Translations under genes and position numbers: made by a program
Origin: a virus
Lineage: Duplodnaviria > Heunggongvirae > Uroviricota > Caudoviricetes
Length of the DNA stretch: 64,000 nt
IMG/VR virus record: IMGVR_UViG_2757320620_000001
Span: 31,417 to 95,416 of that record
Direction: 5' to 3' (one strand)
The notes under the pieces: model-generated
Told to the model about the DNA's origin: nothing
The model's input: the letters and a program-made list of their open reading frames with translations, nothing else
Database searches by the model: none
Shown here: positions 24,871 through 52,671 of the stretch, piece by piece
Layout: the number at the start of each line of letters is the position of its first letter
Numbering within the stretch: the first letter of the stretch is position 1

Positions 24871-25377
24871 ATGCCGCCCAAACCCACCAAGACGCCGATC
24901 AGCGCCGAGGAAAAGGCTCTGACCGAGCGCGCCGGCAAGCGATTGCTGGAAGCGCTCAAGAACATCGACGAGCCTTTTGCCGTTGAAGGCATGCACACGC
25001 GCCCCGTCATGAAGCAGGACGCGACCGACCGTCCCGGCTATCGCCAAAAGCCGCTGCTGCCGAAGTCCGAGCACTTCCTGGCCGACTTCTATCTCGGCGC
25101 CAAGGGCCAGCTGATCTTCAAGGCGGTGCCGACCGAGACCAAGGAATATGATTGGGCTGATGTCGACGAAGCGTCGATGGACGCGGTCTTCCCCCTGGTC
25201 GGCTCGTCCCTGGCCGAGGCGCTCGATATCACCGAATGCGAGGACTTCCGCGCGATCGTCACGACGATGAAGGCGCGCATCCTCAAGGAAGATGCGGACG
25301 CAGCAGCCGCTGCGCTCGAGGAGAAGAAGGAGGCTTCGAAAGCCTATGAAACTAACCCCAATTTTGGAAGGTTCTGA
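24871..25377 (+). CDS. hypothetical protein ending in the C-terminal tail ...NPNFGRF
   Basis: 168 aa. Preceded by the motif at 24841-24860. Its C-terminal heptapeptide is shared with four other ORFs (see findings). Confidence 0.5.
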   Translation: MPPKPTKTPISAEEKALTERAGKRLLEALKNIDEPFAVEGMHTRPVMKQDATDRPGYRQKPLLPKSEHFLADFYLGAKGQLIFKAVPTETKEYDWADVDEASMDAVFPLVGSSLAEALDITECEDFRAIVTTMKARILKEDADAAAAALEEKKEASKAYETNPNFGRF

Positions 25378-25380
25378 CAC

Positions 25381-25953
25381 ATGAAGATCAAGATCGCCGG
25401 GCTCGACGGCTCGCTTCGCAATTTCGGCATCGCCAAGATGCTCTACGATGTCGACACCGCGGAGCTCTCGGTGCTCGATCTCAAGCTGATCGAGACGGAG
25501 AAGGAGCAGACCAAGAAGATGCGCGCATCTTCTGACACCTTCGAGCGCGCCAAGAAGCTCGCGGCTGAGGCCAACGAGTTCACCAAGGACTGCATCATCA
25601 CCTTCGCCGAAGTGCCGTTCGGCGGGAAGAGCTACGACGCCGTGCTCGGCTTCGGGATCGTGATCGGCGTCTATGCCGGCCTCGACGTCGTGCCGGAAGA
25701 AGTGGCGCCGGCGCAGACGAAGATTGCAGCTGTCGGCACCCGCACCGCCTCGAAGGAAGAAATGATCGATTGGGCGTTCCGGCTCTATCCGGACGCGCCG
25801 TGGCTGACGACGAAGCGCGGTGGCGTCATGGTGCCCACCCAGAAGAACGAACACCTGGCCGACGGCGTCGGTGTCGTGCATGCCGGTATCAAGCTGCCGA
25901 GCTTCCGGCAGGCTGTGCAGATCCTCGCGGCGAGCCAAAAGGCAGCGGCATAA
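25381..25953 (+). CDS. putative RuvC/YqgF-like Holliday junction resolvase
   Basis: N-terminal KIAGLDGSLRNFGIA resembles the RuvC/YqgF motif I (LGxDxGxxxxGxA). A conserved acidic/His region EHLADGVGVVHAG lies near the C-terminus. Confidence 0.4.
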   Translation: MKIKIAGLDGSLRNFGIAKMLYDVDTAELSVLDLKLIETEKEQTKKMRASSDTFERAKKLAAEANEFTKDCIITFAEVPFGGKSYDAVLGFGIVIGVYAGLDVVPEEVAPAQTKIAAVGTRTASKEEMIDWAFRLYPDAPWLTTKRGGVMVPTQKNEHLADGVGVVHAGIKLPSFRQAVQILAASQKAAA

Positions 25954-25975
25954 TCTGCGTAAAATTCAAGCCTAT

Positions 25976-25999
25976 GCAGTCAGTCAATATTGATTTAGC
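25976..25999. promoter_or_regulatory. motif copy (GCAGTCAGTCAATATTGATTTAGC) flanked by inverted CCTATGC/GCATAGG
   Basis: Upstream of nrdB. Confidence 0.5.
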
Positions 26000-26037
26000 A
26001 TAGGCACCCTTTCAAATCCAAGATCACGAGACACGCC

Positions 26038-27000
26038 ATGCTGTTTGAACGCCAGGTCGAGCGTTTGCCCGACCATTACCCGTGGACCCAGGACTACATC
26101 GAAGCGATGCAGGACGGCTTCTGGACCGCGAAGAAATTCACCTTCGACACCGACAAGACCGACTACGAGCTGAACCTCTCCGAGGCTGAGCGCCAGATGG
26201 TCACGCGCTGCCTCGCGGCAATCGCCCAGATCGAGGTCTCAGTGAAGGAGTTCTGGAAGCGCCTCGGCGATCATCTGCCGCATCCCTCGATCAAGGATCT
26301 GGGGATCACGATGGCCTATATCGAGGTCATCCACAACAACGCCTACGAGAAGCTCCTGAAGAAGCTCGGCCTGATCGACGTCTTTAAGGAGAACATGAAC
26401 GTTCCGGCCGTCGCCGGCCGCGTCGGCTATCTCAACAAGCACGGCGAGCGCGTCTATACCGACAATCGCAAGCAATACATCTACAGCCTGATCCTTTTCA
26501 CGATGTTCGTGGAAAATGTCAGCCTTTTCAGCCAGTTCTACGTGATCCTCTGGCTCAACCGCTTCCAAAACGTTCTGAAGGATGCCGCGCAGCAGGTGAA
26601 ATACACCCGCAACGAGGAGCTCCTGCACGCCCAGGCCGGCGCCAAGATCATCAACACGCTCCGCAAGGAATACCCGGAGCTGTTCGACGAGGAGATGGAA
26701 CGCAAGATCAAGCACGAATGCCACGTCGCGTTCGGCGCTGAATGCGAACTGATCAACTGGATGGTCGGCGACTACCAGGGCGACAAGCTCAATGCCGAGC
26801 TGATCAAGGGCTATGTCGCACAGCGCTTCAACGAGAGCCTCGAAATGGTCGGCTACGAGCCGGTTTTCCATGTCGATAGCGCCGTTCAGGAGGCGACCTT
26901 CTGGATGACCGAGGGGCTCTACGCTCCGTCGAAGGTCGATTTCTTCCACTCCGAGCCCACCGAATATGCGCAGGCCGACACTGCCGACGACGAATTTTAA
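26038..27000 (+). CDS. nrdB: ribonucleotide reductase small subunit (class I R2, ferritin-like)
   Basis: Two E-x-x-H iron-ligand motifs (YIEVIHNNAY and NEELLHAQAG) in a 320 aa protein. Adjacent to the large subunit. Confidence 0.8.
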   Translation: MLFERQVERLPDHYPWTQDYIEAMQDGFWTAKKFTFDTDKTDYELNLSEAERQMVTRCLAAIAQIEVSVKEFWKRLGDHLPHPSIKDLGITMAYIEVIHNNAYEKLLKKLGLIDVFKENMNVPAVAGRVGYLNKHGERVYTDNRKQYIYSLILFTMFVENVSLFSQFYVILWLNRFQNVLKDAAQQVKYTRNEELLHAQAGAKIINTLRKEYPELFDEEMERKIKHECHVAFGAECELINWMVGDYQGDKLNAELIKGYVAQRFNESLEMVGYEPVFHVDSAVQEATFWMTEGLYAPSKVDFFHSEPTEYAQADTADDEF

Positions 27001-27014
27001 CGAGGACTGAAAAC

Positions 27015-28697
27015 ATGCGAAACGATTATGCCTGGCTGAACCAGGTTGCCCTAACGACGCTCTCGCGCGGCTATCTGCGCGAGGGCATTGCGCCTGAAAA
27101 CCTCAAGGACGAGGCGATCGCCCGGATCAACGCCATCGTCGATCGCGCCGAAGAGATCCTCGGCTTCGAGTTGCCGACACTGCGCTACGGCATAAAGCGC
27201 GGCTGGGTCTCGCCCGCCTCTCCCATCTGGTCGAATTTCGGCGCCGGCCGCGGTCTGCCGATCAGCTGCAACGGCAGCTATATGGCCGACAACATGGATT
27301 CCATCCTGTTCAAGAATGCCGAGATCGGCATGATGACCAAGGAAGGCGCCGGCACGTCTGTCTACATGGGCGCTCTGCGCGCGTTCGGGAAGCCGATCTC
27401 GGGCGGTGGCCGCTCGGAAGGCCCGACGCACTTCGCCCGTCTGCCGCAGGAGCAGGTCACTGTCGTCTCGCAGGGCAACACCCGGCGCGGCAATGCGGCC
27501 GTCTATATCGATATCGAGCATGAGGACGCCGATCGCTGGCTGGACATGCGGTCGATCTCCGGTGGCGTGCATCACCCGATCCAGCACCTGTCGTTCGGCT
27601 TGGTTATCGGCGATGATTGGATGAACGCCATGCTCGCTGAAGAGAAGGGTGGCCCGAAGCGCAAGCTGATGGCGAAGATCCGCAACAAGCGGCGCGAGAC
27701 CGGCTTCCCCTACCTGATCTTCCGCGACAACGCCAACAACGCCCGGCCGGATGTGCTTAAGCGGCTTGGTCTGCTGATCTACGCGTCGAACCTCTGCACC
27801 GAGATCATGTTGCCGTCGGGACCGGATGAAAGCTTCGTCTGCGATCTGTCCTCGGTCAACCTGCTCTATTACGACGAATGGAAGGGCACGCCGTTCGTCC
27901 GCGAAATGATCTATCTGCTCGATGCGGTGATGTCCGAATACATCGAGAAGATCAAAGGCGTGCGGCTGCTGGCTGATGCGCTGCGGTTTGCGGAGCGCTG
28001 GCGCGCGCTCGGCCTTGGCGTTCTTGGCTGGCACTCGCTGCTTCAATCGCAGATGATCGCCATCGAAAGCGACGAGGCGCGGGCGCTGAATATCGAGATC
28101 AGCGAATACATCGCCACCGAGTCGCACGCCGCATCCCGCGACCTGGCTGAACGGCTGGGCGAACCGTCGGGCCTGAAGGGCACCGGCTACCGGAACCTGA
28201 CGGTCAATGCGATCGCGCCGACCACGTCCTCCTCGATCATCTGCGGCCAGGTTTCGCAGCAGCGCGAGCCGTGGACGGCAAACATCTTCGAGAACGACAA
28301 TGCCAAGGGCGTCTTCACGCAGCGCAACGTCTTCCTCGAGGAGCTGCTCGAAAGCAAGGGCCGCAACGACCAGCAGACCTGGCTCTCGATCCTGCAGAAC
28401 GCCGGCTCGGTGCAGCATCTGGACTTCCTGACGCAGCACGAGCGGAACGTCTTCAAGACCTTCGCCGAGATCGACCAGGCCGAGCTGATCCGCCAGACGG
28501 CAGACTGCCAGAAGTTCATCGACCAGGGTATCAGCCACAACATCATCCTGCCGCCTGACGCGACGATGAAGGAAGACATCGATCTGATCGTGCTGGCGTG
28601 GAAGAGCGGGCTGAAATCGCTCTACTATCGCAAGGGGCTCAACAAGGCGCAGGAGCTGGCTCGCCAGAACGCGTCCTGCGTGGCGTGCGAGGCATAA
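27015..28697 (+). CDS. nrdA: ribonucleotide reductase large (catalytic) subunit
   Basis: Active-site N-x-C-x-E is present as SNLCTEIM. A C-terminal Cys pair (CVACEA) is the redoxin shuttle. Short at 560 aa. Confidence 0.8.
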   Translation: MRNDYAWLNQVALTTLSRGYLREGIAPENLKDEAIARINAIVDRAEEILGFELPTLRYGIKRGWVSPASPIWSNFGAGRGLPISCNGSYMADNMDSILFKNAEIGMMTKEGAGTSVYMGALRAFGKPISGGGRSEGPTHFARLPQEQVTVVSQGNTRRGNAAVYIDIEHEDADRWLDMRSISGGVHHPIQHLSFGLVIGDDWMNAMLAEEKGGPKRKLMAKIRNKRRETGFPYLIFRDNANNARPDVLKRLGLLIYASNLCTEIMLPSGPDESFVCDLSSVNLLYYDEWKGTPFVREMIYLLDAVMSEYIEKIKGVRLLADALRFAERWRALGLGVLGWHSLLQSQMIAIESDEARALNIEISEYIATESHAASRDLAERLGEPSGLKGTGYRNLTVNAIAPTTSSSIICGQVSQQREPWTANIFENDNAKGVFTQRNVFLEELLESKGRNDQQTWLSILQNAGSVQHLDFLTQHERNVFKTFAEIDQAELIRQTADCQKFIDQGISHNIILPPDATMKEDIDLIVLAWKSGLKSLYYRKGLNKAQELARQNASCVACEA

Positions 28698-28699
28698 GG

Positions 28700-28948
28700 A
28701 TGGGTATTCACGTTCTCGTCCGGACTACGCCGCCCTGCGGCTACTGCGTCAAGACCAAGGCTCTGCTCGACATGAAGGGTCTTGCCTACACGACCGAGGA
28801 TCACGAGACGCCGGAGAGGGTCGAGGCCTTCAAGAACGCCGGGCACCGCTCCTTTCCGCGCGTCTTCATCGATGACGAGCTGATCGGTGGTTTCGACGAG
28901 CTGCAGGCGCACCTTCAGGACAAGTCGTCGGGAGATGATGATTTCTGA
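28700..28948 (+). CDS. glutaredoxin (NrdH-like)
   Basis: The motif C-G-Y-C in TTPPCGYCVKTKALL is the glutaredoxin CxxC active site. The gene is 82 aa and sits directly after the RNR genes. Confidence 0.7.
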   Translation: MGIHVLVRTTPPCGYCVKTKALLDMKGLAYTTEDHETPERVEAFKNAGHRSFPRVFIDDELIGGFDELQAHLQDKSSGDDDF

Positions 28949-28980
28949 AAATAACTGTTGAGTCCCATCGCTGCGCTTGC

Positions 28981-29003
28981 TAGTAAGTAAATGTTGATTG
29001 AAC
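28981..29003. promoter_or_regulatory. motif copy (TAGTAAGTAAATGTTGATTGAAC) in the loop of an 11 bp hairpin (CGCTGCGCTTG/CAAGCGCAGCG), part of the third bipartite module
   Basis: The stretch 28974-29012 is 36/39 identical to 7120-7158. Confidence 0.5.
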
Positions 29004-29120
29004 ACAAGCGCAGCGAAATCAAACAGCGAGGTGAACATGAAGCGCCTTTAGGTGACCGTCGGAACAAGTCCAAAATTGATTAGCCCAAGACGAGCCGGGA
29101 TCGTCAGAAAATAAGCCCGG

Positions 29121-29225
29121 CCCTTATGCGAAGTGCGTGACGGCCCACGCGATATGGGTCGGTCACAGTAGGAAGTGGCGAGAGGGGTGTTCCTACCATT
29201 CTTCGATCCGCACTTCGCATAAGGG
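29121..29225. other. 105 nt element bounded by 17 bp perfect inverted arms (CCCTTATGCGAAGTGCG ... CGCACTTCGCATAAGGG) with an internal 7 bp hairpin
   Basis: Arms at 29121-29137 and 29209-29225 are exact reverse complements. The internal hairpin is GTAGGAA/TTCCTAC (29168-29196). It lies 66 nt upstream of tRNA-Cys in a 355 bp ORF-free gap. Confidence 0.5.
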
Positions 29226-29851: not shown

Positions 29852-30050
29852 CGAAGATCGGCACACGCCGAAACTGAAGACCATCGCCGGCCTTATCCAG
29901 GGTCTCACCTACCGCGAAATGAACGAGCTCACCGAGCTCCTCGCGCAGGAAATGCCCGGCGCACGTCCGGATGCGCTCGTCGAGGCGATGCTTAACGTCA
30001 CGGATAAGCTTCTCGCCCCGCCCGCTGCCCCGCAGCCCAAATTCCGTTAA
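29826..30050 (+). CDS. hypothetical protein (about 74 aa; GTG start after an AGGAG RBS)
   Basis: The frame of ORF 29769..30050 is trimmed to GTG 29826. Weak call. Confidence 0.25.
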
Positions 30051-30150
30051 CCCAAGGATTTTCGCTTTGAATATCGCACAAAAAGACCGCGTGACCAAGA
30101 TCACCGGCGATTACAGCTTCGACGGCACCATCGTCGCTGCTTTCGACAAG

Positions 30151-31083
30151 ATGGACGGCAAGCAGCGCTTTGTGGTCGAGGACGATCGCGGTGCTCTGCA
30201 TATCTACAGTGAGCAGAACCTGCGTCCGATCGGCAACATGGCTGATCACCAGTATCTGCGCATTCTCAACAAGCTTGTGCGGCACGGCGTCTATCGCGAG
30301 GGCCGCAACGGTGGCACCTACGGCCTGTTTGGCGAGCAGATGCGCTTCGACCTGGCCGAAGGCTTCCCGCTGCTGACGACCAAGAAGGTCCATTTTCACT
30401 CGATCATGGTCGAGCTGCTCTGGTTCCTGCGCGGCGACACCAATATCAAGTTCCTGAAGGATCACAACGTCTCGATCTGGGACGAATGGGCTGACAAGGA
30501 CGGCGAGCTCGGCCCGGTCTACGGCAAGCAGTGGCGTAACTTTGTCGGCGCCAAGAAGGTCGTCTACGATCGGACGTCCGGCGCCTCGGAATATCAGCCG
30601 GTCTTCGTCGACCAGATCAAGAACGTGATCGCCGGACTGAAGAGAGATCCGCACGGTCGCCGACACATTGTCTCGGCCTGGAATCCGGCCGAAGTCGACC
30701 AAATGGCGCTTCCGCCCTGCCACACGATGTTCCAGTTCCACGTCGCGAACGGCAAGCTTTCGTGTCATCTTTATCAGCGTTCTGCAGATTGGTTCTTGGG
30801 CACGCCATTCAACGTCGCCTCGTATGCGCTGCTGACGCACCTCGTCGCCCGTGAAGTCGGCCTTGCCGTCGGTGATTTCGTTCACACGTTCGGCGATCTG
30901 CACCTCTACGCCAATCACGTCGACCAGGCGAAGCTGCAGTTGAGCCGCGAGCCGCGGTCACTCCCGAAATTGCTGATCAACCCGCTCGCCAAGCTCGTCG
31001 GCATTTTTGACCTGCTGCCGCGCGACATCGAGGTCGTGGATTACGATCCGCACCCGACGATCAAGGCTGACGTGTCCAAGTGA
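30151..31083 (+). CDS. thyA: thymidylate synthase (ThyA-type)
   Basis: Core ThyA motifs: RTGTG-like [24 protein letters not shown] (catalytic Cys, [10 protein letters not shown]) and HTFGDLHLY. The start is uncertain (ATG 30151 versus ATG 30238). Confidence 0.8.
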
Positions 31084-31191: not shown

Positions 31192-31458
31192 GTGTTTCTC
31201 AGAAAGACCATTCTCGCCGGCGCCGCGGTTGTTAGCGTCGCCCTCCTGTCCTCCTGCCGCGTCGATCCCCAGGATGCACAGCGCATCCTCGCCGACAGCG
31301 GCATGAAGGATATCGAGCTCAAGGGCGGCTCGTGGTTCGGCTGCTCGAAGGGTGATACCTACAACACCGAATTCGTCGCAACCGGCCCGACCGGCCGGCG
31401 CGTCGAGGGCGTTATCTGCGGTGGCCTCCTGAAGGCCTACACCGTTCGCCTCTACTAA
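31192..31458 (+). CDS. lipoprotein (signal peptide with LLSSC lipobox)
   Basis: MFLRKTILAGAAVVSVALLSSC followed by a polar mature region. GTG start after an AAGGAGC RBS. Confidence 0.45.
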   Translation: MFLRKTILAGAAVVSVALLSSCRVDPQDAQRILADSGMKDIELKGGSWFGCSKGDTYNTEFVATGPTGRRVEGVICGGLLKAYTVRLY

Positions 31459-32728: not shown

Positions 32729-33196
32729 ATGCGCATCAACTTCAAGAAACTCCACCCCGACGCCGTCATGCCGAGCTACGGCACACCCCACGCTGCCGGC
32801 GCCGACCTGGTCGCAAACCTCAAGGCGACCTTCGAGAATGAACCCATCGGCGATGACTACGGGTATGTCCTCTCGCCGGGCGAGAGCAAGTTGTTCAAGA
32901 CCGGCATCGCCGTCGAAATGCTAACCGGCATGTGGGCCGAGGTCCGCGGCCGCTCCGGGCTCGCCTACAAGAACGGCATTGCGATCCTCGGCGGTGTGAT
33001 CGACAGCGATTACCGCGGTGACATCGGCGTGATCCTGCACAACACGTCGGATAAGCCCTTCATCGTCAAGCACGGCGAGCGCATCGCCCAGCTCATCTTC
33101 GCGACCTATATTCCGGTGAATTTCATCGAGAAGAAGGAGCTGAGCAACACGGGCCGCGGCGAAAAAGGCTTCGGCTCGACTGGCATGGCCGCCTGA
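32729..33196 (+). CDS. dut: dUTP diphosphatase (trimeric dUTPase)
   Basis: Motifs AAGADL, GxRSGLA (RGRSGLAYKNGI), GVIDSDYRGDIGVIL and a C-terminal RGEKGFGSTG. Start at 32729 after a GGAGAATAAA RBS. Confidence 0.8.
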   Translation: MRINFKKLHPDAVMPSYGTPHAAGADLVANLKATFENEPIGDDYGYVLSPGESKLFKTGIAVEMLTGMWAEVRGRSGLAYKNGIAILGGVIDSDYRGDIGVILHNTSDKPFIVKHGERIAQLIFATYIPVNFIEKKELSNTGRGEKGFGSTGMAA

Positions 33197-33909: not shown

Positions 33910-36273
33910 ATGGAAGTTTCGCAGGTAGCGGCGCTCGACACCCACGTAATCATCGGTGGTGGTGCGCCCGAGGCGTTCGGCATGGCCGATACCGCTGAAT
34001 TTTACGACGTCCTCTCCGACAACATCTACCGCGACAAGAAGCGCGCGGCGATGCGCGAGACCATTTGCAACGCCTGGGATGCGCATATCATGGTCGGTAA
34101 GACCGATGTGCCGGTCGAGATCACCGTCACCGACACCGAGATCGTCATTAAGGATTTCGGCCCAGGTATTCCGGATCATCTGATGCGGCCGATCTACTGC
34201 GTCTATGGCGCCTCGACGAAGGTGAAAGACGGCAAGCAGACAGGCGGTTTCGGTCTTGGCTCCAAATCGCCCTTCGCTGTCGGCGACCACTTCAACGTCG
34301 TCAACGAGCACGCCGGCTTCAAGACCGTATATGCCCTGTCGCGCGGTGGCGCCGCAACGCAAGGCAAGCCCGACATGCGCCCGATGGTGCGCGTGCCGTC
34401 CGTCAACACCGGCATTACCGTCACGATCCCGCTGAAGAACGTCAAAGATCGCCCCGAGTTCGAGGCCCATATCCGCGCAGTCGTGCGCCAGGGCGGCATG
34501 CTTGCCAATCTCAACGGTCAGCCGCTTTTCCGCAACGATTACACCGAGGCGCGCAAGACGGAATATTGCCTCATTCCGCAGACCGGTCTCTGGGAAGGCA
34601 AGGTCTATGTGCTTTACGGCACGGTGATCTATCCGCTGACAACCACCGACGAAGACTTGCTGGCGCTCGCCCACAAGGCCGGAAGCTATACCTGCCGCGA
34701 ATCCATTCTGCTGCTCTGCGCACCGCCGAACTCGATCGGTGTCACGCCCAGCCGCGAGTCCCTCTCCTATTCCGACACAACGACCGAGACGCTGACGCGC
34801 CTTTTGCAGAAGGCCTGTCGGCAGATCAACGCGGCGATCCCAGCCGCTATCAAGCGCGTTGCCCACGCCAGGCTCGAGAGATGGGGTGTAAAGGCGTTCG
34901 ATCGCAGCTTTGACGCCGAACGTCGAACCTGCGGCATTCTCTCGACGCCGGCGATGATCGCTGACCACGCGGTCGCCACCAACTCCGCTCACATGTCGGC
35001 CAAGCAGGCTAGACGCACGATGCTCAAGGTCGCCGCACCGATGTTCCGCGACGACCGGCGCTGGTATCGGCGTGCTGTTCACGAGCATTACTCCAACGAC
35101 GAGCTTAATTTCAGGCGCACTTCGATGCCGGCCATTCGCATTGCCTCGCAGATGGGCTTGCTGAAGGATCTGATGCTGTTCGATCTGCATCGCAACCGCC
35201 TGGCCCTGCCTGGCCCGAAGACCCAGCCGATCGCCAAATATCACCGGATCGGCCACGTTCACGCCGTTCTTTGTGTGGCGCGCAATCTGCGCGATCTGCG
35301 CCCGACGCTGAATGCCACCTCCGGAAGGTTCCGCAACGAGGAGCATAGCTACGTTCCCGGCGTCGTGATGCGTCAATGGACGGAAAAGAACCTCAAGGCC
35401 CTGCGCGAACTCTGCTCGCGGTTCAAGATTGAGCTGGTCGAGTTCGATTACGAGGAAGAGAAGGAGCGTCGCGCGAGCCAGGCGAAGCGGGTGAAGACCG
35501 AGGAGAAATACCTGACCCTCGAGGACTACATCAAAAGCGGCTATCGCGCCGACCCCACCTGCAATGAGCCGGCCTTCTACATGATGACCTGGCAGCGCGA
35601 CGAGATCCCGCGCACGCCGTTCGACACTCATCTTGTGAAGGCGATCGTCGAGAAGTTCCCCAACACGGCGCTGATCACGACGAAAGCCCAGGAGGAGAAA
35701 TTCAAGAAGCTCGGTATCCGCAACCTGGCCGAAGTCGCGGCCGCACGCCTGGTCGAGCTGACGAAGCTGCGCGAGGTCGTCTACGGCGAGCTCATCCGGC
35801 ACGACCGCATCGCCGCAGACAAAGACCGCTTCTATCACGGCTCCCTTGCCGACGCCGTGCTGAAGCTCGCCAAACTCGACGTGCGTATCGCCAAGATGCT
35901 CTTCCCGGACAGGTCGACGCCGGGCGAGGCCCACAGGGAGGCCGCACTGCTTTGGGACTTCCTCGTCAACGCCCAGTCGCTCTCCGAGGAGACTACAGCG
36001 ATCGTCAAAGCGGCGAAGAAGGGATTGCGCCGAGCCTGCGCCGAATTGTTCAAGCCGCTCACTGCGGATGAAGTGGACCGGCGCTTTGCATACCTCGAAG
36101 TTCTGCGTGGCGCCAACATCATCGGCTCCATGAACTACAGATCAACCTCGAAGGAGGCTGAGAACTTGATCGAGGTGATCAAGATTCTCCAGCGCCGCAG
36201 CAGTAAATCAAAATTGATTGCACACAACACCCAGGCCGCGAAGGTCACAACCGCCCACAAGGAGGCAGCATGA
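33910..36273 (+). CDS. rIIA: rIIA-like protein with an N-terminal GHKL (HATPase_c) ATPase domain
   Basis: Bergerat-fold motifs: N box ETICNAWDA, G1 box KDFGPGIP, G2 box TGGFGLGSKS. About 787 aa, immediately followed by and coupled (ATGA) to a clear rIIB homolog. Confidence 0.65.
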   Translation: MEVSQVAALDTHVIIGGGAPEAFGMADTAEFYDVLSDNIYRDKKRAAMRETICNAWDAHIMVGKTDVPVEITVTDTEIVIKDFGPGIPDHLMRPIYCVYGASTKVKDGKQTGGFGLGSKSPFAVGDHFNVVNEHAGFKTVYALSRGGAATQGKPDMRPMVRVPSVNTGITVTIPLKNVKDRPEFEAHIRAVVRQGGMLANLNGQPLFRNDYTEARKTEYCLIPQTGLWEGKVYVLYGTVIYPLTTTDEDLLALAHKAGSYTCRESILLLCAPPNSIGVTPSRESLSYSDTTTETLTRLLQKACRQINAAIPAAIKRVAHARLERWGVKAFDRSFDAERRTCGILSTPAMIADHAVATNSAHMSAKQARRTMLKVAAPMFRDDRRWYRRAVHEHYSNDELNFRRTSMPAIRIASQMGLLKDLMLFDLHRNRLALPGPKTQPIAKYHRIGHVHAVLCVARNLRDLRPTLNATSGRFRNEEHSYVPGVVMRQWTEKNLKALRELCSRFKIELVEFDYEEEKERRASQAKRVKTEEKYLTLEDYIKSGYRADPTCNEPAFYMMTWQRDEIPRTPFDTHLVKAIVEKFPNTALITTKAQEEKFKKLGIRNLAEVAAARLVELTKLREVVYGELIRHDRIAADKDRFYHGSLADAVLKLAKLDVRIAKMLFPDRSTPGEAHREAALLWDFLVNAQSLSEETTAIVKAAKKGLRRACAELFKPLTADEVDRRFAYLEVLRGANIIGSMNYRSTSKEAENLIEVIKILQRRSSKSKLIAHNTQAAKVTTAHKEAA
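36201..36223. promoter_or_regulatory. motif copy (CAGTAAATCAAAATTGATTGCAC) inside the 3' end of the rIIA-like CDS, upstream of rIIB
   Basis: Seen directly. Confidence 0.4.
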
Positions 36274-37919: not shown

Positions 37920-38570
37920 TTGATCGAGCTTGACAGCCAAGGTCGCCGCGCCAATCGCGGCCAATACATGCACTCGGCAAACGGCAAGAAGATCTATCTC
38001 TTCGATCCGCGGCCGGAGGAAATCAACATCGAGGTCGTGGCGCATCATCTGGCGACCAACAATCGCTGGAACGGCGCAACGCAGCACAAGCTGTTCCGCA
38101 GCCGCATCTCCTTCTCCGTGGCCGAGCATTCGGTCTATTGCGCCTGGTATGTGCGCGACGTGCTCCAAAAGCCGGAATACGAGCTCGAGGCGCTGCTGCA
38201 TGACGGCCCGGAATATGTCACCGGCGACATGATCCGCCCATTGAAGCACGAGCCGACGGTTCACCGCGTCTATGCGCCGATCGAGCTGAACTGGGAGCAG
38301 GCTTTTGCGAAGCGCTTCAACCTCGCCTTCCCGCTGCCCAAGGAAGTGAAGATGGCTGATGAAGCTGTCTGCGCGGCCGAGAGCCGGCAGATCGTGCCGA
38401 AAGACCCGAACGAGGAGTGGCGTTCCGGCATCATGCACGACGATTCCGCGGTGGCTCCCTACGAGATCGAAATGATGGGTGCGTTTCAGGCCAAGGAATT
38501 CTTTCTGCAGGCCTATGAAGATGCCATCCGGCGCCGCGCGAAATACGCTTCACTTCCAATCGCAGCGTGA
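37920..38570 (+). CDS. HD-domain phosphohydrolase (YfbR-like 5'-deoxynucleotidase)
   Basis: H...AEHS...LLHDGPEYVTGD is the HD-superfamily metal-binding pattern. TTG start 6 nt after a strong AAGGAGG RBS. Confidence 0.6.
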   Translation: MIELDSQGRRANRGQYMHSANGKKIYLFDPRPEEINIEVVAHHLATNNRWNGATQHKLFRSRISFSVAEHSVYCAWYVRDVLQKPEYELEALLHDGPEYVTGDMIRPLKHEPTVHRVYAPIELNWEQAFAKRFNLAFPLPKEVKMADEAVCAAESRQIVPKDPNEEWRSGIMHDDSAVAPYEIEMMGAFQAKEFFLQAYEDAIRRRAKYASLPIAA

Positions 38571-40177: not shown

Positions 40178-40470
40178 TGGCCTGGGGAGCACGCCAAGAG
40201 GAAGACGGCAGCTGGAGACTCTGTGAGCGTCGTGGGCGCACGATCACCCAATTGTCGCGTCAGCTATCGCCCGAGGTCGAAATACGTTTCCCTGGGCGCG
40301 CTATGGCCGAGCAATGCGCCCACGCGATGAACGACCACTGGGCCGAATACGATCGCACCAACCGGCGCCACCCGAACGCCTGGGCAATCGTCGATATCAT
40401 AGTTGCACACAAGGGCATCAGCCCCGCCGATCTGCAACGAGTAAAGGAATGGAAAAATGCAACATCTTGA
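40177..40470 (+). CDS. hypothetical protein (97 aa)
   Basis: TGATG-coupled. Confidence 0.4.
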   Translation: MAWGARQEEDGSWRLCERRGRTITQLSRQLSPEVEIRFPGRAMAEQCAHAMNDHWAEYDRTNRRHPNAWAIVDIIVAHKGISPADLQRVKEWKNATS

Positions 40471-41026
40471 GCCTCTCGAGGCGGGCGTCGATATCGAGAC
40501 AACTGGCCTCGAGCGTGGCGATCACCGCATCATCGAGGTCTATATCGGCCTCTATCGCGGCGACAAGCTGCTGAAGGAGTTCAATCAGCGGATCGATCCG
40601 CAGCGCTCGATCGCCAAGGAGGCGCAGGACGTCCACAAGATCAGTTCCGCCGATCTCGTTGGCATGCCGGTCTGGTCGGCGGTCGCTCCCACTGTCCACG
40701 CCTTTCTGAACAAGGCCGACAGCTGGGTGGCGCACAACGGCAATGACTTCGACTTCCCCTTCATCGCTTACGAGCTGAAGCGAGCCGGCCTGGTCATGCC
40801 GGAGAAGCCGACCGTGGACACGATGCATTTCAGCTGGGCGACGCCGGACGGCAAGAAGCCGAACCTGCGCGAGCTGTGCCTGGCCTGCGACGTGCCCTAT
40901 GACCCGAGCCTGGCGCACGCCGCGGACTACGACGTTCACAGAATGATGGAAAGCCTCTTTGCTGCGCGCCGGTTCGGCTATGTCGAGTGGCCGCAAGTCG
41001 CCGTCCAAATCCCTGCGGCTGCCTGA
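40457..41026 (+). CDS. DnaQ-like (DEDDh) 3'-5' exonuclease, Pol III epsilon-like proofreader
   Basis: Exo I DIETTGL, Exo II HNGNDFDFPFI, Exo III HAADYDVHRM. Confidence 0.75.
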   Translation: MQHLEPLEAGVDIETTGLERGDHRIIEVYIGLYRGDKLLKEFNQRIDPQRSIAKEAQDVHKISSADLVGMPVWSAVAPTVHAFLNKADSWVAHNGNDFDFPFIAYELKRAGLVMPEKPTVDTMHFSWATPDGKKPNLRELCLACDVPYDPSLAHAADYDVHRMMESLFAARRFGYVEWPQVAVQIPAAA

Positions 41027-45959: not shown

Positions 45960-46286
45960 ATGATCACCAACGCCCTGGAGAAAATGACGGCTGAAATCGG
46001 GCGGGAGCCCGCTGCACGGGCATTTCACCTCAACAATGGCGACTGTGGGTTGGTCATCCGTAAGGATGGAACGACCGAAATGTTCCAGCAAGGTTTTTGC
46101 ATAGCTGGTTTGCAGCAAACGCATAGCACAATGTCGGCAGAAGACAAACAGGCGCTGCTCAATGGACAGACGCTGATGGTGCTTAGCATTGTTGCTGCGT
46201 CGCCGGAACTGCAAAGTTCGATTCTCGCCGTCGCAATCAACCAGGGGGCGGTCGATATTCCCACCGCAAACGCCAATGCCGCATAG
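45960..46286 (+). CDS. hypothetical protein (108 aa)
   Basis: GGAAAGGAATAAA RBS. Confidence 0.45.
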   Translation: MITNALEKMTAEIGREPAARAFHLNNGDCGLVIRKDGTTEMFQQGFCIAGLQQTHSTMSAEDKQALLNGQTLMVLSIVAASPELQSSILAVAINQGAVDIPTANANAA

Positions 46287-46689: not shown

Positions 46690-46918
46690 GCGCCTCGAGT
46701 TCGCCTGTAATGCGTTCCTCACCTCGATGACGCGGCAGTTCTTCGCGCTCAATCCTGACGCTACCGAGTGTCCGGTGAAGCCGCTGACCGAATACCCCGA
46801 GGATCAACGCAGCGCGCTGATGCGCTCGGTCGGCGCGGCGCTGAAAAGCACCGATACCGACGGCGATGCGGCTTTCGAAGCCTGGGTGGCGCAACAGCAG
46901 TCTGCCCAGGCCGCTTAG
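46670..46918 (+). CDS. hypothetical protein (82 aa)
   Basis: Alternative (GTG) start. Weak call. Confidence 0.3.
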   Translation: MQKINRKRLEFACNAFLTSMTRQFFALNPDATECPVKPLTEYPEDQRSALMRSVGAALKSTDTDGDAAFEAWVAQQQSAQAA

Positions 46919-46998: not shown

Positions 46999-47550
46999 AT
47001 GGCTAACACCAGCCTGCCGGCGAAGCTTACCGACCTCCAGCAACACATGCTCTCGATGGTCGACCACATGCTGAAGCAATACGGCCAACCCGGCTCCACC
47101 TCGATCTTCTCGCCGGCGCGGCGCCACGGCAAGTCCCTGGCAATGAAGGCGATCACGACGAATGCAGTCGCGGGTCTCAACCCGACAATGATAACTGTCG
47201 ATGAGTGGACGAGCGTTTTCAACGAGCCTGTCAGCGCCAGCGAATTGACCTCGGTTTTGATACCTGAGTTCAAGGCCGTCGGCCCCGAGGTTACGCTCGA
47301 CGATCCGAAGTGGCCGGGCAGCCGGATCGAGATCTGGCGCAAGGAGACCGAGAAGCGCGATCCGCGCCACCCTAATCCGAAGGCCGGCCGGATCGTCCGC
47401 TACGAGATCCGCGGCGAGCACGCCGAGGGCGAAAGGGAACTCCATAGTCTCGATGTCGCCCGGCGCCGCGCCCAGATGCTGCACGAGCGCGCCATCAAGC
47501 GTATCCAGCGCCAGATGCAGGCAGCAAACCCGATGTTCGGCCGCTTCTAG
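46999..47550 (+). CDS. hypothetical protein ending in ...NPMFGRF
   Basis: Preceded by the motif at 46931-46952. Carries the C-terminal tail shared with four other ORFs. Confidence 0.5.
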   Translation: MANTSLPAKLTDLQQHMLSMVDHMLKQYGQPGSTSIFSPARRHGKSLAMKAITTNAVAGLNPTMITVDEWTSVFNEPVSASELTSVLIPEFKAVGPEVTLDDPKWPGSRIEIWRKETEKRDPRHPNPKAGRIVRYEIRGEHAEGERELHSLDVARRRAQMLHERAIKRIQRQMQAANPMFGRF

Positions 47551-48181: not shown

Positions 48182-48377
48182 AGCGCCGACGTTCCGCAGC
48201 TATCTGCAATGCACCGACTGCGGCCACGTCACCACGGTCAACACCGTGCCGTTCTCCATCGTCAAGCCGAGCCGGCGTCTGGAGTGCAGCTGCGAGGACT
48301 ATAGCGTGCGCTCGATCTCGGAAGAGGAAGGCTTTGACGCGATTGTGCGCCAGCAGGTCGAGGGCGTTGCGGCATGA
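48165..48377 (+). CDS. small zinc-ribbon protein (CTDCG ... CSCED)
   Basis: 70 aa with two Cys pairs. Confidence 0.4.
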   Translation: MPKKREAPTFRSYLQCTDCGHVTTVNTVPFSIVKPSRRLECSCEDYSVRSISEEEGFDAIVRQQVEGVAA

Positions 48378-48739
48378 GTGTCTCGATCGTCACCCTCTCC
48401 TGCGGCTGCTTCATCGCCGGCCGGGATTTCCACTCATGCGCCGGCCACGAGAATAGCGAGCCGAACGGCATCGAGACCAAACAGGTCGAGATCCGCCTCG
48501 AAAATACCTGCGGCGCCTGCCCCGAGCAGTATGACGCCTTCTTCGGCGACGAGATGGTCGGCTATCTGCGTCTGCGGCATGGCTATTTTCGCGTCGAATA
48601 TCCGGACATCGGTGGTGACGTAATCCTCGACGGTCATCCCGTGGGCGACGGCTGCTTCGATCCGGACGAGCGCGACGAATGGCTGAACAGGGCGAAGACA
48701 GCGATCGCCGCCCGCCTGGTCAAGGAGGGAAAGGTCTGA
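48374..48739 (+). CDS. hypothetical Cys/His-rich protein (121 aa)
   Basis: ATGA-coupled. Clusters CGC...HSCAGH...CGACPE. Confidence 0.4.
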   Translation: MSVSIVTLSCGCFIAGRDFHSCAGHENSEPNGIETKQVEIRLENTCGACPEQYDAFFGDEMVGYLRLRHGYFRVEYPDIGGDVILDGHPVGDGCFDPDERDEWLNRAKTAIAARLVKEGKV

Positions 48740-48933
48740 TGAAGAAGCAGCACAACCGGCAACGCCCGAACCAGAAGAAACAGCGTCAGAAATCGACACA
48801 GCGAGTCACCAGCGCGATCCGTCGCAATGCGTGGCCGACAGCTTATCAATTCGGGAGCTCGCTTCAAATGGCTTCTCTCGCATTGGCTATGGGCTGGGTC
48901 GGTATCGACAGACTCCAGGAGCGGACGCGATGA
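48739..48933 (+). CDS. hypothetical basic protein (64 aa)
   Basis: TGATG-coupled. Confidence 0.3.
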   Translation: MKKQHNRQRPNQKKQRQKSTQRVTSAIRRNAWPTAYQFGSSLQMASLALAMGWVGIDRLQERTR

Positions 48934-49370
48934 ACTGGACCTCATCCAATGAGCACGAGCGTTTCAAGCACAAGGACTGGCAGTATCTGGTCCAGACCGA
49001 GCAACTGAAGCTCTCCTATCACGACTGGGTCGTCGCTCAGGTCGACGAATGGACGTCCGACGTCCGGGCGCTGAACGACAAGCTCCGGCGCGGGCAGACT
49101 AGCGGGACGATTGCGATCGCCGGCGCTCTGGCAAATGCGGAGCAAGAGGAGATCCTCGCCGCTGCGCGTCAGGTGATGGACTACGCCGCCTTCGACCCGA
49201 AGGACGATCCCCATAACGAGCACGACTTCGGCTCCTTTGAGATCGAGGGCCAGCGCTACATGTGGAAGATCGACTATTACGATCTGGCGATGGAGAACCT
49301 GTCGGAGAATCCGGCCGATCCCAAAGTGACGAACCGCGTGCTGACGATCTTCTACGCCGAGGATTACTGA
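48930..49370 (+). CDS. hypothetical protein (146 aa)
   Basis: ATGA-coupled. Confidence 0.4.
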   Translation: MNWTSSNEHERFKHKDWQYLVQTEQLKLSYHDWVVAQVDEWTSDVRALNDKLRRGQTSGTIAIAGALANAEQEEILAAARQVMDYAAFDPKDDPHNEHDFGSFEIEGQRYMWKIDYYDLAMENLSENPADPKVTNRVLTIFYAEDY

Positions 49371-49699
49371 TGATCCAGGAGGCGGTTCTCGATTCGCTCG
49401 AAGGCGATCGTTACATCGGCTTCCTGGTCGAACAGGAAGAGTGGCGCGATGTCATCAACAGCTATGGATTTGCCGAAACGAAGCTTGTCGGTAAGAATTG
49501 GATCTGGCGCATCACCGATCGCCTGACCGGCAACACCACGGAGGGACCGATTCCTTCAGGCACGGAAGCCGAGGTTCAAGCCTTCTTCGAAGAGACCTGG
49601 GCGCAGTTCAATAATAGCCCCTATCGGCCACCCGTGCCGGAAGTGCCGATCGTCCCCGTGGACCCTTACGCGAGCCACCCCAACTACGGGCGGTTCTAG
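49371..49699 (+). CDS. hypothetical protein ending in ...HPNYGRF
   Basis: TGATG-coupled. Carries the shared C-terminal tail. Confidence 0.45.
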
Positions 49700-49773
49700 C
49701 TACCGAACGCTCCCGAGTGCAGCCCTGACGCTCGCATGCAATAACAGAATGTAAACAGCAGCTTAGAGGTTAC

Positions 49774-50028
49774 ATGAAGCTTTTCAATTGCCTTTCGAAG
49801 AAGACGCAGGCCGCCCTTGAGAGCATAGGTGATTGCTGGCGCCTTGAGTTAGGCCGCAAGCATATTCGGATCTTCGTCCACGACACCCTAGCGGCGTCGG
49901 CACCGAGAAAGCTCCGCGGCGACGGCGACGGTGGTTACCGCGCGGAGCTCAACGTGGTTTCCCAGATTCGCCGCGCCGCTCGAGGAGAGGCAACGTCGCG
50001 GCGCACGGACTTGACGTCTGCCACATAA
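49774..50028 (+). CDS. hypothetical protein (84 aa)
   Basis: AGAGGTTAC RBS. Confidence 0.35.
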   Translation: MKLFNCLSKKTQAALESIGDCWRLELGRKHIRIFVHDTLAASAPRKLRGDGDGGYRAELNVVSQIRRAARGEATSRRTDLTSAT

Positions 50029-50065
50029 ATCCTGCCGCAATCCTTGTCGCATCGTGCGACATTTG

Positions 50066-50086
50066 ATAAGTCAACATTGATTGAGG
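50066..50086. promoter_or_regulatory. motif copy (ATAAGTCAACATTGATTGAGG)
   Basis: Upstream of ORF 50095. Preceded by the palindrome GTCGCATCGTGCGAC. Confidence 0.45.
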
Positions 50087-50094
50087 AAACGCAC

Positions 50095-50304
50095 ATGCCG
50101 AAGAACGCAGCGCAGAAGATCCAGCCGGTGGTCATAGACCTGAACGGCACCAACGAGAAGGGCGAGCCGACCTTCGCCGGCTACACCGTTTTCCAGGCGA
50201 CGCAGATCGCCTGCGAGAGCAGCAGCCCCAACGCCCTCGAGTGGCTCAAGGCCTGGTGGAATGCCGACCTGACCGCGATGAACACGACACCGGAGAGCTA
50301 CTGA
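50095..50304 (+). CDS. hypothetical protein (69 aa)
   Basis: Motif at 50066-50086, then a GAGGAAACGCAC RBS and ATG 50095. Confidence 0.4.
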   Translation: MPKNAAQKIQPVVIDLNGTNEKGEPTFAGYTVFQATQIACESSSPNALEWLKAWWNADLTAMNTTPESY

Positions 50305-50720
50305 TGCAGGTCACGACCCGCTACCTCAACTTCCCCGCCCTCCTCTACCGCGTCGGCCACGCCGACAGCTCGCAAGGGCTCTGGTATGACGGCGACGGCC
50401 AGGAGACCGGCATCATCCACTCGCTGAAGGACGGCGCTGCTGGTGCGCTGCCGATGGGGCCGCACGAGGTCTTTAAGGCTGACGGCCGGGCATGGATCAG
50501 CGCCACCGACAACCTGCCGGATCTCGGTCGCTGGTTCAGCCATGCCGACATGATCGAGCTGCTCGACCGTGGCTATCAGCTCGAGGAGATCGGCGTTCAC
50601 CGCTATCGCTATCTGCAGTTTGCCACCTACGGGCACCAGGTCTTCTGCGTGGAAGATGTGATCTTCCGGCGCGCCATCGACCCGATGCTGCCATATCAGC
50701 CGGTTCGGAGGGCAGCGTGA
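50304..50720 (+). CDS. hypothetical protein (138 aa)
   Basis: TGATG-coupled. Confidence 0.4.
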   Translation: MQVTTRYLNFPALLYRVGHADSSQGLWYDGDGQETGIIHSLKDGAAGALPMGPHEVFKADGRAWISATDNLPDLGRWFSHADMIELLDRGYQLEEIGVHRYRYLQFATYGHQVFCVEDVIFRRAIDPMLPYQPVRRAA

Positions 50721-50887
50721 GCGAAACCTTCATGAAGATCGTGATCGAGACCGCGCGGCCGCCCTCACCCGACGACCTCAAGCGCATCGAGTGGCAAGTC
50801 GCCGACGCCCTGAAGGCGCTCGAATACACCGGCGAGCCAGAGGGTAATCAAATCACCGGTGCTTTCGTCGTAAAGGAGAAGTCTTGA
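50717..50887 (+). CDS. hypothetical protein (about 56 aa)
   Basis: GTGA-coupled start. Alternative ATG at 50741. Confidence 0.25.
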   Translation: MSETFMKIVIETARPPSPDDLKRIEWQVADALKALEYTGEPEGNQITGAFVVKEKS

Positions 50888-51405
50888 TGGGCGCGCTCGG
50901 CAATCTAACCCGCAAGGTCAAGCGACGCGCTGATCCAGCCAAGTTTGCTCGGCAGGTGCTGCGCAAGGATAGAATCATCATGGATCACCTGGCACGCAGC
51001 GAGCGCCGGCCGGCGACCGGCTTCTATGCCGGCCTGACCGACGAGCAGAAGCGCCTGGTCATGGTGGCGAAGGATGGCTCCGTTCAACTCGACGTGGAAA
51101 TGAGCCGCGCCGAGCTCGAGGAGCGCTCGACCGTCGGCGAGATCCAGCCATCGCACCCGCAGCGATACGAGAGCCACGGCCACGAGACCAAGGGTCGCAT
51201 CTTCAATGGCGAGTGCAATCGATCGGCGTGCGACAACTGGCGCGCCACCTACTACAACGTCATGACCTATTCGTATTATTGCCGGCCGTGCGGCTGGGCG
51301 ATCAACGAAGCGCCGCAAGGCCGCGGCAAGCCGATCTGTATCGAGGTGACGGAGAATCTGACGCACGAGCGCATGGATTATCTCTATCAGGAGCAGTATC
51401 GATGA
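50887..51405 (+). CDS. hypothetical Cys-rich protein (172 aa)
   Basis: Coupled start. NGECNRSACDNW...YYCRPCGW. Confidence 0.4.
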   Translation: MGALGNLTRKVKRRADPAKFARQVLRKDRIIMDHLARSERRPATGFYAGLTDEQKRLVMVAKDGSVQLDVEMSRAELEERSTVGEIQPSHPQRYESHGHETKGRIFNGECNRSACDNWRATYYNVMTYSYYCRPCGWAINEAPQGRGKPICIEVTENLTHERMDYLYQEQYR

Positions 51406-51788
51406 GGGTCGTCCAGCGCATGCTCAACGACCTGCACAGCGACCTCGGGTGCGGCGGCTCCCGTGGCGACTTCACAAACGACATATGGACCGTGACCTGG
51501 CGCTTTGGCGTCAAGCGCATCGAAGATAAGGCGCGCGACAACGTCTTCTCGATCCACAATGTCACCTTGGCCGAGAGGCACCGCGGCCGCGGGTATTTCA
51601 CCGACCTGCTGCGGCGTCTGGATGAGCACCCGGAACTGGGCGGCCAGCGCTTCGATTGGATCTACCTCGAGCAGGTGAACTACCGGCTCGCCGGCCACCT
51701 CGAGCGCGAGCTCCACTACAAATCCGAGTTTGGCATGGTGATCGACTGCTGGCGCCGGGTAACCGGGCAATTGGAGATGAAGCTGTGA
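51402..51788 (+). CDS. putative GNAT-family acetyltransferase
   Basis: IHNVTLAERHRGRGYFTDLLRRL resembles the acetyl-CoA binding motif A (R/Q-x-x-G-x-G/A). ATGA-coupled. Confidence 0.35.
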   Translation: MRVVQRMLNDLHSDLGCGGSRGDFTNDIWTVTWRFGVKRIEDKARDNVFSIHNVTLAERHRGRGYFTDLLRRLDEHPELGGQRFDWIYLEQVNYRLAGHLERELHYKSEFGMVIDCWRRVTGQLEMKL

Positions 51789-52351
51789 TCGAGCCTGATT
51801 ACAATGAGAGCATCTGGACGCTGGATTCCCACACCGGCGACTATGCGCTCCTGACCCTCAATAAGGACGCTGGGCACGCCTGTGTCATCCGCTGCGTTGA
51901 CGGTGACTGGGAGACCAACGATAGCGGCACGCTCGAGGCGATGCGCCGGAAGTTCATGCGCGTGACCGGCAAGACCTTCCCACAAGGTCTCGGCCGCGAC
52001 TCTTTTGACGCAGCCTATCCGCCTGGCGAATGGGTTCAGGTGGACGCGCTCTTTCTCGATGGCTTCGACTATTATCTTTGGCAAGGCGGCCCCAACCCCA
52101 AAAGACCCCTTGGGGTCTGCGTGCGAGTTACCCAGCATAGCTTCCGCTGGGAGGTTCTTGATCAAGGTGAGTATCCAACGGTTCACCACACGATGACGGG
52201 TTTCAAAGCAACGGTAGGCGCGCAGCCGATTGAATGGACTCATGCCGGGCATCCGCCGCAGCACCGCTGCACTTGTAGCGCCTGCGCCGACGGCAGGGCG
52301 GAAGAGGCAACGCGAACCTATGCCGGCAACCCAAATTTCGGGCGGTTCTGA
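51785..52351 (+). CDS. hypothetical protein ending in ...NPNFGRF, paralog of the next gene
   Basis: Shares GLGRDSFDAAYPPGEWVQVDALF with GIGYDSFDKAFPHAEWEQLDAFT of 52351..52671. GTGA-coupled start. Confidence 0.45.
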   Translation: MIEPDYNESIWTLDSHTGDYALLTLNKDAGHACVIRCVDGDWETNDSGTLEAMRRKFMRVTGKTFPQGLGRDSFDAAYPPGEWVQVDALFLDGFDYYLWQGGPNPKRPLGVCVRVTQHSFRWEVLDQGEYPTVHHTMTGFKATVGAQPIEWTHAGHPPQHRCTCSACADGRAEEATRTYAGNPNFGRF

Positions 52352-52671
52352 TGCTCCAGAAAGGTATCGGCTACGACTCCTTCGACAAGGCCTTCCCGCA
52401 TGCCGAATGGGAGCAGCTCGACGCCTTCACGACCAAGAACGACATCGGCTACACGCTATGGAGAATGCGCGGCGTCCGCGGACCAAATCCACCCGCCTTT
52501 AGCTCGAGCTCGCACCTCGACATCGATGGCGATCTCGCCTGGCAGCAGGTCCACAAAGGGAATCTTTGGCGGGTGCAGGAGAGCTGGGATCGAGCCAAGG
52601 CGAACCTCGCATATGTGCCACCGCCGAAGGTCGACGAGTATGCCGCGCACCCCAACTTCGGGCGGTTCTGA
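52351..52671 (+). CDS. hypothetical protein ending in ...HPNFGRF, paralog of the previous gene
   Basis: TGATG-coupled. Carries the shared C-terminal tail. Confidence 0.45.
   Translation: MLQKGIGYDSFDKAFPHAEWEQLDAFTTKNDIGYTLWRMRGVRGPNPPAFSSSSHLDIDGDLAWQQVHKGNLWRVQESWDRAKANLAYVPPPKVDEYAAHPNFGRF

Follow-up and report, generated by a model that had tools for sequence, protein, structure and literature searches.

Why do small proteins of a tailed phage, most of them unrelated to one another, end in the same peptide? The question is raised by a window of 64,000 nucleotides (the whole stretch of DNA that was analysed), which is identical to Rhizobium phage RHEph10 (NC_034248/JX483881) over record positions 31417..95416. 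The RHEph10 genome is 115 kb long, and its nearest relatives in phage collections are RHph_Y2_11 (91%), RHph_N1_10/N1_15 (79%) and V1VFA-S (75%, over part of the query). A preliminary description of this DNA, made from the sequence alone, had listed five ORFs with a common C-terminal tail. Our ORF calls and translations found all five, each ending in [NH]-P-x-[FY]-G-R-F-stop as claimed, and we show here that the tail is a real, strongly selected and portable C-terminal motif on alphaproteobacterial mobile-element proteins.

All five genes lie on the plus strand. The first, gp068 (24871..25377), encodes a 168-amino-acid orphan without a Pfam or PHROG match that ends in YETNPNFGRF, its last ten residues being encoded at 25345..25374; the gene directly downstream reads as a RuvC-like resolvase, judging from its GLDGS motif and its position. 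Upstream of an HD phosphohydrolase gene lies gp140 (46999..47550; tail 47518..47547), which codes for a 183-amino-acid orphan ending in QAANPMFGRF. The third ORF, gp134 (49370..49699; tail 49667..49696), encodes a 109-amino-acid orphan with a proline-rich linker and the end YASHPNYGRF; this end is as first described, while its annotated start is 49370 and not 49371. The last two are the paralogs gp127 (51785..52351, with a GTG start; 188 amino acids; YAGNPNFGRF at 52319..52348) and gp126 (52351..52671; 106 amino acids; YAAHPNFGRF at 52639..52668). A six-frame scan of the whole genome (~170 genes) found [FY]-G-x-F-stop at exactly seven real genes. The two additional carriers precede the window by 0.5-1.4 kb and neighbour the genes for DnaB helicase and primase: gp034 (record 29985..30629, 787-1431 nt before window position 1), which has a WGR domain and ends in YAGNPRFGMF, and gp035, which ends in SIHENFGRF.

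Amino-acid composition predicts 0.027 [FY]-G-x-F ends per genome, against the seven observed. The preliminary description had suggested setting the tail against shuffled proteomes, and the excess is strong: with a heuristic ORF set that recovered five of the seven tail genes, the Poisson P for those five was ~1e-10, and no more than two tail ends appeared in any of 2000 shuffles. Internal [FY]-G-x-F occurs at chance level (9 observed, 5.5 expected), indicating that the motif is specific to C-termini, so the weaker internal look-alikes mentioned earlier carry no weight. One of these, NSIPFGRF in RtcB, was rejected for this reason and because its relatives keep PFG[RQ]F just ahead of the catalytic core.

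Selection acts on the peptide itself. The synonymous codon differences noted before for the five window genes hold and extend across all seven: counting back from the final residue as position 0, Arg at -1 is written as AGA, AGG, CGC or CGG, Gly at -2 as GGA, GGC or GGG, and Pro at -5 as CCA, CCC or CCG. That the carriers are diverged paralogs had been named beforehand as an objection, and comparisons outside the tail do not support it. With the last ten residues removed, blastp linked only gp126 and gp127 (4e-9), as had been claimed, and hhalign on ortholog alignments gave this pair a probability of 100% and the other 20 pairs all less than 6%. A signal at the level of nucleic acid or translation, such as a ribosome-binding site for the next gene, termination-reinitiation or nascent-peptide stalling, could be suspected from the four of seven tail genes that abut or overlap the next start codon. 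However, the other three are followed by gaps of 73-96 nt, which do not fit a ribosome-binding site or coupling, third-codon positions and Arg codon families vary freely, and the same peptide ends recombinase genes in other genomic contexts (see below). With the paralogy tests negative and a chance expectation of 0.03 per genome, a gene-end signal, chance and common descent are already largely refuted as explanations, and we give them almost no credence.

The tail is also kept where the rest of the protein is not. Searches with tail-trimmed queries detected 37 orthologs in N1_10, V1VFA-S, several 116-118 kb IMG/VR contigs, a Methylorubrum contig and metagenomic contigs, and all 37 retain an aromatic-G-x-[F/W] end, also where the bodies are no more than 25-30% identical, with 25% as the lowest value. 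The preliminary description had treated loss of the tail in related phages as fatal to its proposal, and no such loss was seen. Orthologs of gp068 keep the tail in N1_10 (82% identity, INPNFGRF) and V1VFA-S (26%, NNELFGAF), those of gp140 (27-49% identity) end in NPMFGRF, NPLFGRF, NPNFGRF or HPEFGGF, and those of gp134 (42-62% identity) all end in HPNYGRF. There are eight tail genes in N1_10 and six in V1VFA-S, where the tails read FGAF, FGGF, FGTF or YGRF, and some genes in these two sets are lineage-specific orphans without a RHEph10 ortholog. Kept while its flanks diverge, present on unrelated proteins and selected as a peptide, the tail thus behaves as a short linear motif under purifying selection.

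The family of carriers that defines the motif is that of gp034, whose WGR domain is recognised by Pfam at 9e-16. A profile of nine close gp034 homologs, run against 1.84 billion representatives, returned 699 matches, and the tail is present in 107 of the best 150 cluster representatives (50% clustering), all with the same architecture and a length of ~160-280 amino acids, most of them ~160-200. In a logo built from the 101 sequences that end exactly in the tail, Gly at -2 and Phe, Trp or Tyr at -3 are found in 100%, and Phe at 0 in 95%, the remainder having Trp. Upstream of these, Pro at -5 (80%), Asn at -6 (72%) and Tyr at -9 (48%) are preferred, with Leu or Asn at -4 and Met, Arg, Ala or Leu at -1, giving the consensus Y(-9)..N-P-[LN]-[FWY]-G-x-F-COOH. 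We found no WGR orthologs from other host lineages with a different recognisable tail; every full-length relative found has the same one. In an AlphaFold model of the WGR protein (mean pLDDT 93.8), a WGR fold, which matches the WGR domains with which PARP2 and PARP3 bind DNA breaks, leads through a long helix to the tail. All relatives examined have the WGR gene between primase and ATP-dependent ligase within a conserved module, PhoH-DnaB-primase-WGR-DUF8312-ligase-RepC-CobT-CobS-sigma-DnaE. The gp034 protein itself has the PARP-like DNA-break-sensor domain without a catalytic domain, and its true start is likely the internal MSYPIDF (182 amino acids), judged from all homologs.

The same tail occurs on bacterial serine recombinases. 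When a single genome from each bacterial species was scanned for the DNA pattern, at least 120 matches were obtained; among the matches listed, those in long ORFs were almost all from Alphaproteobacteria, and several were serine recombinases. A homology search with a Sinorhizobium recombinase as query listed 120 cluster representatives, 67 of which carry a ~25-residue linker and the tail, almost all of them at least ~41% identical to the query. Typical ends are Y-Q-H-H-P-N-F-G-R-F and Y-Q-D-N-P-N-Y-G-A-F, and the named sources are Sinorhizobium, Rhizobium, Neorhizobium, Mesorhizobium, Pleomorphomonas and Ancylobacter. Relatives one step further away (221-227 amino acids) stop directly after the conserved core, without a tail. 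Alignments to plasmid homologs from Deinococcus and from the Bacteroidota Spirosoma and Hymenobacter reach no further than residue ~216 of 249, whereas the plasmid homologs in Cereibacter and Lichenihabitans carry the tail, and one Cereibacter plasmid holds two tailed recombinases with the variants PLYGAF and PNFGRF. In the AlphaFold model of a recombinase, the tail follows a long helix at a pLDDT of 66, as expected for a conditionally ordered peptide. Apart from WGR and Resolvase, no Pfam or PHROGs matches were found on the tail-bearing proteins. A PARP-like WGR protein and bacterial serine recombinases share one tail, and the earlier idea of a common tail on unrelated proteins extends to a portable module with carriers well beyond the phage.

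Tailed recombinase genes sit in defence islands on chromosomes and plasmids of Hyphomicrobiales and Rhodobacterales, with examples in Rhizobium ruizarguesonis (loci L171/L172), Mesorhizobium (L173) and Cereibacter plasmid p4 (L169). Among the contents of these islands are BREX BrxL/PglZ/PglX with two Ku genes, DarT-NADAR with GmrSD and restriction enzymes, and CRISPR I-U with toxin-antitoxin pairs, and the recombinases may mobilise or invert the islands. In the loci examined there were no phage genes nearby and no neighbouring gene in common.

Pattern and profile searches elsewhere added little. A scan of viral contigs for W-type tails found no matches, a tail-only profile (40-column alignment of C-termini) run against a 5.8-billion-protein index gave 28 candidates of which none scored, a PDB profile search with the tail alignment returned nothing relevant, and Pfam found nothing on the neighbours of stray viral and bacterial matches. 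DNA-pattern scans of metagenomes found either nothing or only a Halothiobacillaceae protein of 168 amino acids (loci L041 and L156) that ends in TYINPNFGRF and looked to us, from its sequence, like a cyclic-nucleotide-binding domain protein. This gammaproteobacterial protein is the sole candidate outside Alphaproteobacteria, and its NPNFGRF end may be a coincidence, as ~ten PNFGRF ends are expected by chance among all species-representative proteomes. Some small proteins that carry or adjoin the tail also show a recurrent N-terminal motif, M-A-L-T-[NP]-A-E-[KR]-[QT]-R, ahead of a short Arg-rich stretch; examples come from Mesorhizobium, Rhizobium and a viral contig (L038 5150..5866; L110 5250..5795, minus strand; L010 2448..3002, minus strand), and no family match was found for them.

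With moderate confidence, we propose that the tail, Y-x-x-[NHD]-P-x-[FYW]-G-x-F-COOH, is a portable short linear docking plug that brings unrelated mobile-element proteins to one common receptor. Carried on the tip of a linker that is helical or rich in proline, it would form a hydrophobic plug with two invariant aromatic anchors (-3 and 0), an invariant Gly at -2 and N-P as a helix stop, and this plug would dock otherwise unrelated proteins on a single receptor protein. We infer that the tail binds a protein, that its partner is encoded by the host and that binding leads to recruitment instead of degradation. As the same tail ends recombinases in chromosomes and plasmids free of phage, the most economical candidate for the receptor is a host protein of Hyphomicrobiales and Rhodobacterales, or else one with homologs in phage as well as host, and the phage-encoded partners considered in the preliminary description become less likely. 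Several carriers have DNA-related contexts, namely the WGR gene between primase and ligase, small proteins next to DnaE and to the gene read as RuvC-like, and the serine recombinases, which suggests that the receptor may be a DNA-transaction hub. Such a hub would recruit the tailed proteins, or the tailed proteins would recruit the hub to particular DNA structures.

A bolder extension, which we hold only tentatively, is that Alphaproteobacteria, at least Hyphomicrobiales and Rhodobacterales, own an unrecognised hub with a pocket for N-P-x-aromatic-G-x-F-COOH, and that mobile elements have repeatedly captured the tail as a plug-in module coupling their DNA transactions to that host machine. The capturing elements would be a large clade of ~115-kb phage-plasmid-like elements and the recombinases of defence islands. 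If true, this would add a "tool-belt" of a new kind alongside the sliding clamp and SSB. Shared C-terminal docking peptides organise bacterial replication and repair factors on those hubs, whose pockets are drug targets. Finding the receptor could reveal a lineage-specific hub exploited by mobile elements and would give a first functional handle on many orphan genes together, and the 7-10 residue tail would then be a ready-made tag for recruitment or interference experiments in rhizobia.

Several observations weigh against docking on a host hub. Of the 174 family sequences, nine have an extra residue, usually small, after the final Phe, which indicates that strict recognition of the terminal carboxylate is not universal. 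In the WGR model the tail has a pLDDT of 80-91, which leaves room for an intramolecular contact that could be autoinhibitory. The theme of DNA transactions is drawn from gene neighbourhood, the WGR domain and the recombinases, and no function is known for five of the seven phage carriers. Finally, orthologous tails from different genomes differ more than the tails of a single genome do: two adjacent genes of the Methylorubrum element both end in WGSW, and two genes of contig L168 both end in FGAF with synonymous codon differences. Such concerted tails show protein-level adaptation to a putative receptor that differs between lineages, either as a host version or as a phage-encoded protein, and they may mean that the phage, and not the host, encodes the receptor and that the two co-evolve.

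A receptor encoded by the phage-plasmid and co-evolving with its tails, with the bacterial recombinases using a host homolog, would account for these concerted ends and could be sought among the WGR protein, DnaB, primase, ligase, the CobS/CobT AAA+-VWA pair and an HslV-like peptidase. In favour of such a receptor, the PhoH-to-DnaE module is present in every relative examined, and the tail has high confidence in the WGR model. We nevertheless find it quite unlikely: the recombinase loci and plasmids carry no phage-module genes, and the couplings between WGR tail and body columns by mutual information are weak (top z ~4) and confounded by phylogeny and subfamily. Moreover, different tail variants coexist on one plasmid and, as -GRF and -GAF, on recombinases of the single genus Rhizobium, so that the difference between RHEph10 and V1VFA-S lies within the tolerance of one receptor and does not require a phage-encoded one. 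RepC, which is specific to Alphaproteobacteria and found in all relatives, was set aside as a receptor because neither plasmid with tailed recombinases lists it, an argument that is not absolute since the PLSDB gene tables are incomplete. As a separate observation, the HslV-family peptidase (record 101556..102008, outside the window; L003 1556..2008) begins M-S-V-V-V-Y, so that Ser follows the initiator Met in place of the usual Thr, and the phage annotation shows no HslU to pair with it. The element as a whole looks like a phage-plasmid, as does its clade, since RHEph10-like genomes carry repC (window 1895..2899, minus strand) and parA/parB (record 102538..103179 and 106243..106989, outside the window) and appear as stand-alone contigs of 113-119 kb in isolate assemblies of Phyllobacterium, Rhizobium bangladeshense, R. 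azibense, Ensifer and Methylorubrum and in one other assembly (113 kb).

If the receptor is indeed a host hub, the beta sliding clamp (DnaN) is one candidate, with the tail as a non-canonical clamp motif that places phage accessory proteins and island recombinases on the host "tool-belt". The final pentapeptide, [N/L]-[FWY]-G-[M/L/R/A]-F-COOH, parallels QL[SD]LF and especially QLGLF, the C-terminal clamp motif of E. coli Pol II. Clamp binding is known for transposases, the contexts of some carriers are related to DNA, and the phage has a gene for a DnaE-type polymerase and none annotated as a clamp, so that it probably uses the host beta clamp; a conserved 240-amino-acid protein between PhoH and DnaB is unlikely to be a phage clamp, as its sequence does not read as clamp-like. 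Like the tail, clamp motifs are short, hydrophobic, often C-terminal peptides ending in Phe, by which many unrelated DNA-transaction proteins attach to a common hub (PMC9690074, PMC8034640). The absence of Gln from the tail is not decisive, as Caulobacter MutS uses DLPLF (PMC8034640) and the bacterial consensus tolerates much variation (PMC9690074). We still consider the clamp improbable as the receptor. Positions 2 (aromatic) and 5 (F) of the pentapeptide fit, but position 1 is N or L, and position 4, the key hydrophobic anchor, is Arg in six of the seven RHEph10 tails (Met in gp034), Ser in the Methylorubrum element and Ala, Gly or Thr in V1VFA-S. The best-conserved features of the tail, N-P, the invariant Gly and Tyr at -9, are alien to clamp motifs. 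In addition, two RHEph10 proteins hold stretches of the canonical pattern, QLELLP (12612..12629) in DnaE (9810..13223, with a C-terminal UDG-like domain) and MESLF (40946..40960) just past the exonuclease domain of an epsilon-like exonuclease (40457..41026); if these are functional, the phage addresses the clamp pocket with an ordinary motif. The tail might instead be a degron or adaptor tag that delivers proteins to a host AAA+ protease (ClpXP via SspB-alpha, Lon or HslUV), timing the turnover of phage proteins and keeping recombinase levels low. Recombinases and transposases are commonly controlled by instability, and SspB-alpha has a role in ssrA/ClpXP delivery. The N-P-N-[FY]-G of the tail resembles A-N-D-N-[FY]-A, the SspB-binding start of the alphaproteobacterial ssrA tag, and RHEph10 has a second enriched C-terminal signature, -Ala-Ala, which resembles ClpX-type C-degrons of Alphaproteobacteria. 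The full Caulobacter tag, AANDNFAEEFAVAA, is confirmed in the literature and shares with the tail an N-x-N-[FY]-small core, a restriction to Alphaproteobacteria and the C-terminal place. It differs in that it has Asp where the tail has its conserved Pro, ends in the non-polar (L/V)-A-A of ClpX degrons whereas our tails end in G-x-F, and is added by tmRNA instead of being encoded in the gene. To our knowledge, no described bacterial degron has an invariant Gly with paired aromatic anchors. Transferable five-residue C-terminal Lon degrons do exist in Alphaproteobacteria, as in LarA, but this one is Val-rich with a terminal His (PMC10665427) and was rejected as dissimilar. A degradation signal is thus doubtful.

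Two other recurrent ends in RHEph10 proteins deserve mention in their own right. Ala-Ala closes 20 of 162 annotated plus-strand proteins, against 1.9 expected, and is also in excess in N1_10 (14) and V1VFA-S (22); translational coupling does not explain this, since only 11 of the 20 genes have an overlapping or adjacent downstream start. Examples in the window are 24208..24636 (QKVAA), 25381..25953 (QKAAA), 32729..33196 (GMAA), 33910..36273 (KEAA), 37968..38570 (PIAA), 40457..41026 (PAAA), 45960..46286 (NANAA), 46727..46918 (AQAA) and 50304..50720 (RRAA). NrdB, the small subunit of ribonucleotide reductase (26038..27000, ending TADDEF), and the adjacent glutaredoxin (28700..28948, ending SGDDDF) have a common acidic tail with a terminal Phe, which suggests that both dock on NrdA, the large subunit, through the known R2-tail mechanism. 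This would be a third "tail code" of the same genome.

How new, then, is this motif? The preliminary description had recognised no described motif in it, and our searches with peptide strings and related concepts likewise found no description of the tail in the searchable literature; it had, however, missed that the tail fits a formal pattern, the xZxxZ-COOH (Z = F, W or Y) of chemoreceptor pentapeptides, which sit at the extreme C-terminus on a flexible tether (PMC7390727). All tails have F, W or Y at -3 and F or W at 0 at the end of proline-rich or helical linkers, Asn is frequent at -4, and W-type tails such as N-W-G-M-F closely resemble NWETF. Pentapeptide-bearing chemoreceptors are, moreover, common in Rhizobiales (21%) and Rhodobacterales (20%), but their pentapeptides are mostly acidic, matching a basic site on CheR (PMC7390727), whereas our tails are neutral or basic, with the invariant Gly and R, M, A or L at the remaining positions, and extend upstream through N-P to Tyr at -9. 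None of the carriers is a chemoreceptor; they comprise a WGR protein, resolvase-family recombinases and orphans. Tethering a DNA-break sensor or a recombinase to CheR would make no biological sense, so docking on the chemotaxis enzymes CheR or CheB is highly improbable.

Other known docking tails share less with this one. The FtsZ C-terminal peptide (P-x-F-x-R) was rejected as a match because the key hydrophobic positions differ and its Arg is not conserved in the tails. The tip of SSB (DDDIPF) and the acidic tails of T7 gp2.5 and gp4, unrelated replication proteins that both dock on the polymerase by the same kind of acidic Phe tail, have in common with ours only the principle of a terminal Phe on a flexible tail. 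These are strongly acidic, while our tails lack the Asp/Glu run followed by I/L-P-F and end in G-x-F, and the polarity of SSB is opposite, with its tail on the hub and the pockets on the clients. The eukaryotic and archaeal ribosomal stalk ends in MGFGLFD, likewise a C-terminal docking peptide on a flexible linker, and its F-G-L-F core is identical to that of some tails (NPNFGLF, NPLFGLF); it belongs to another domain of life and has an acidic run ahead of the core, and we know of no bacterial equivalent of its receptor. Docking on a hub by a terminal peptide is known in kind, and the tail sequence described here would be a further form of it.

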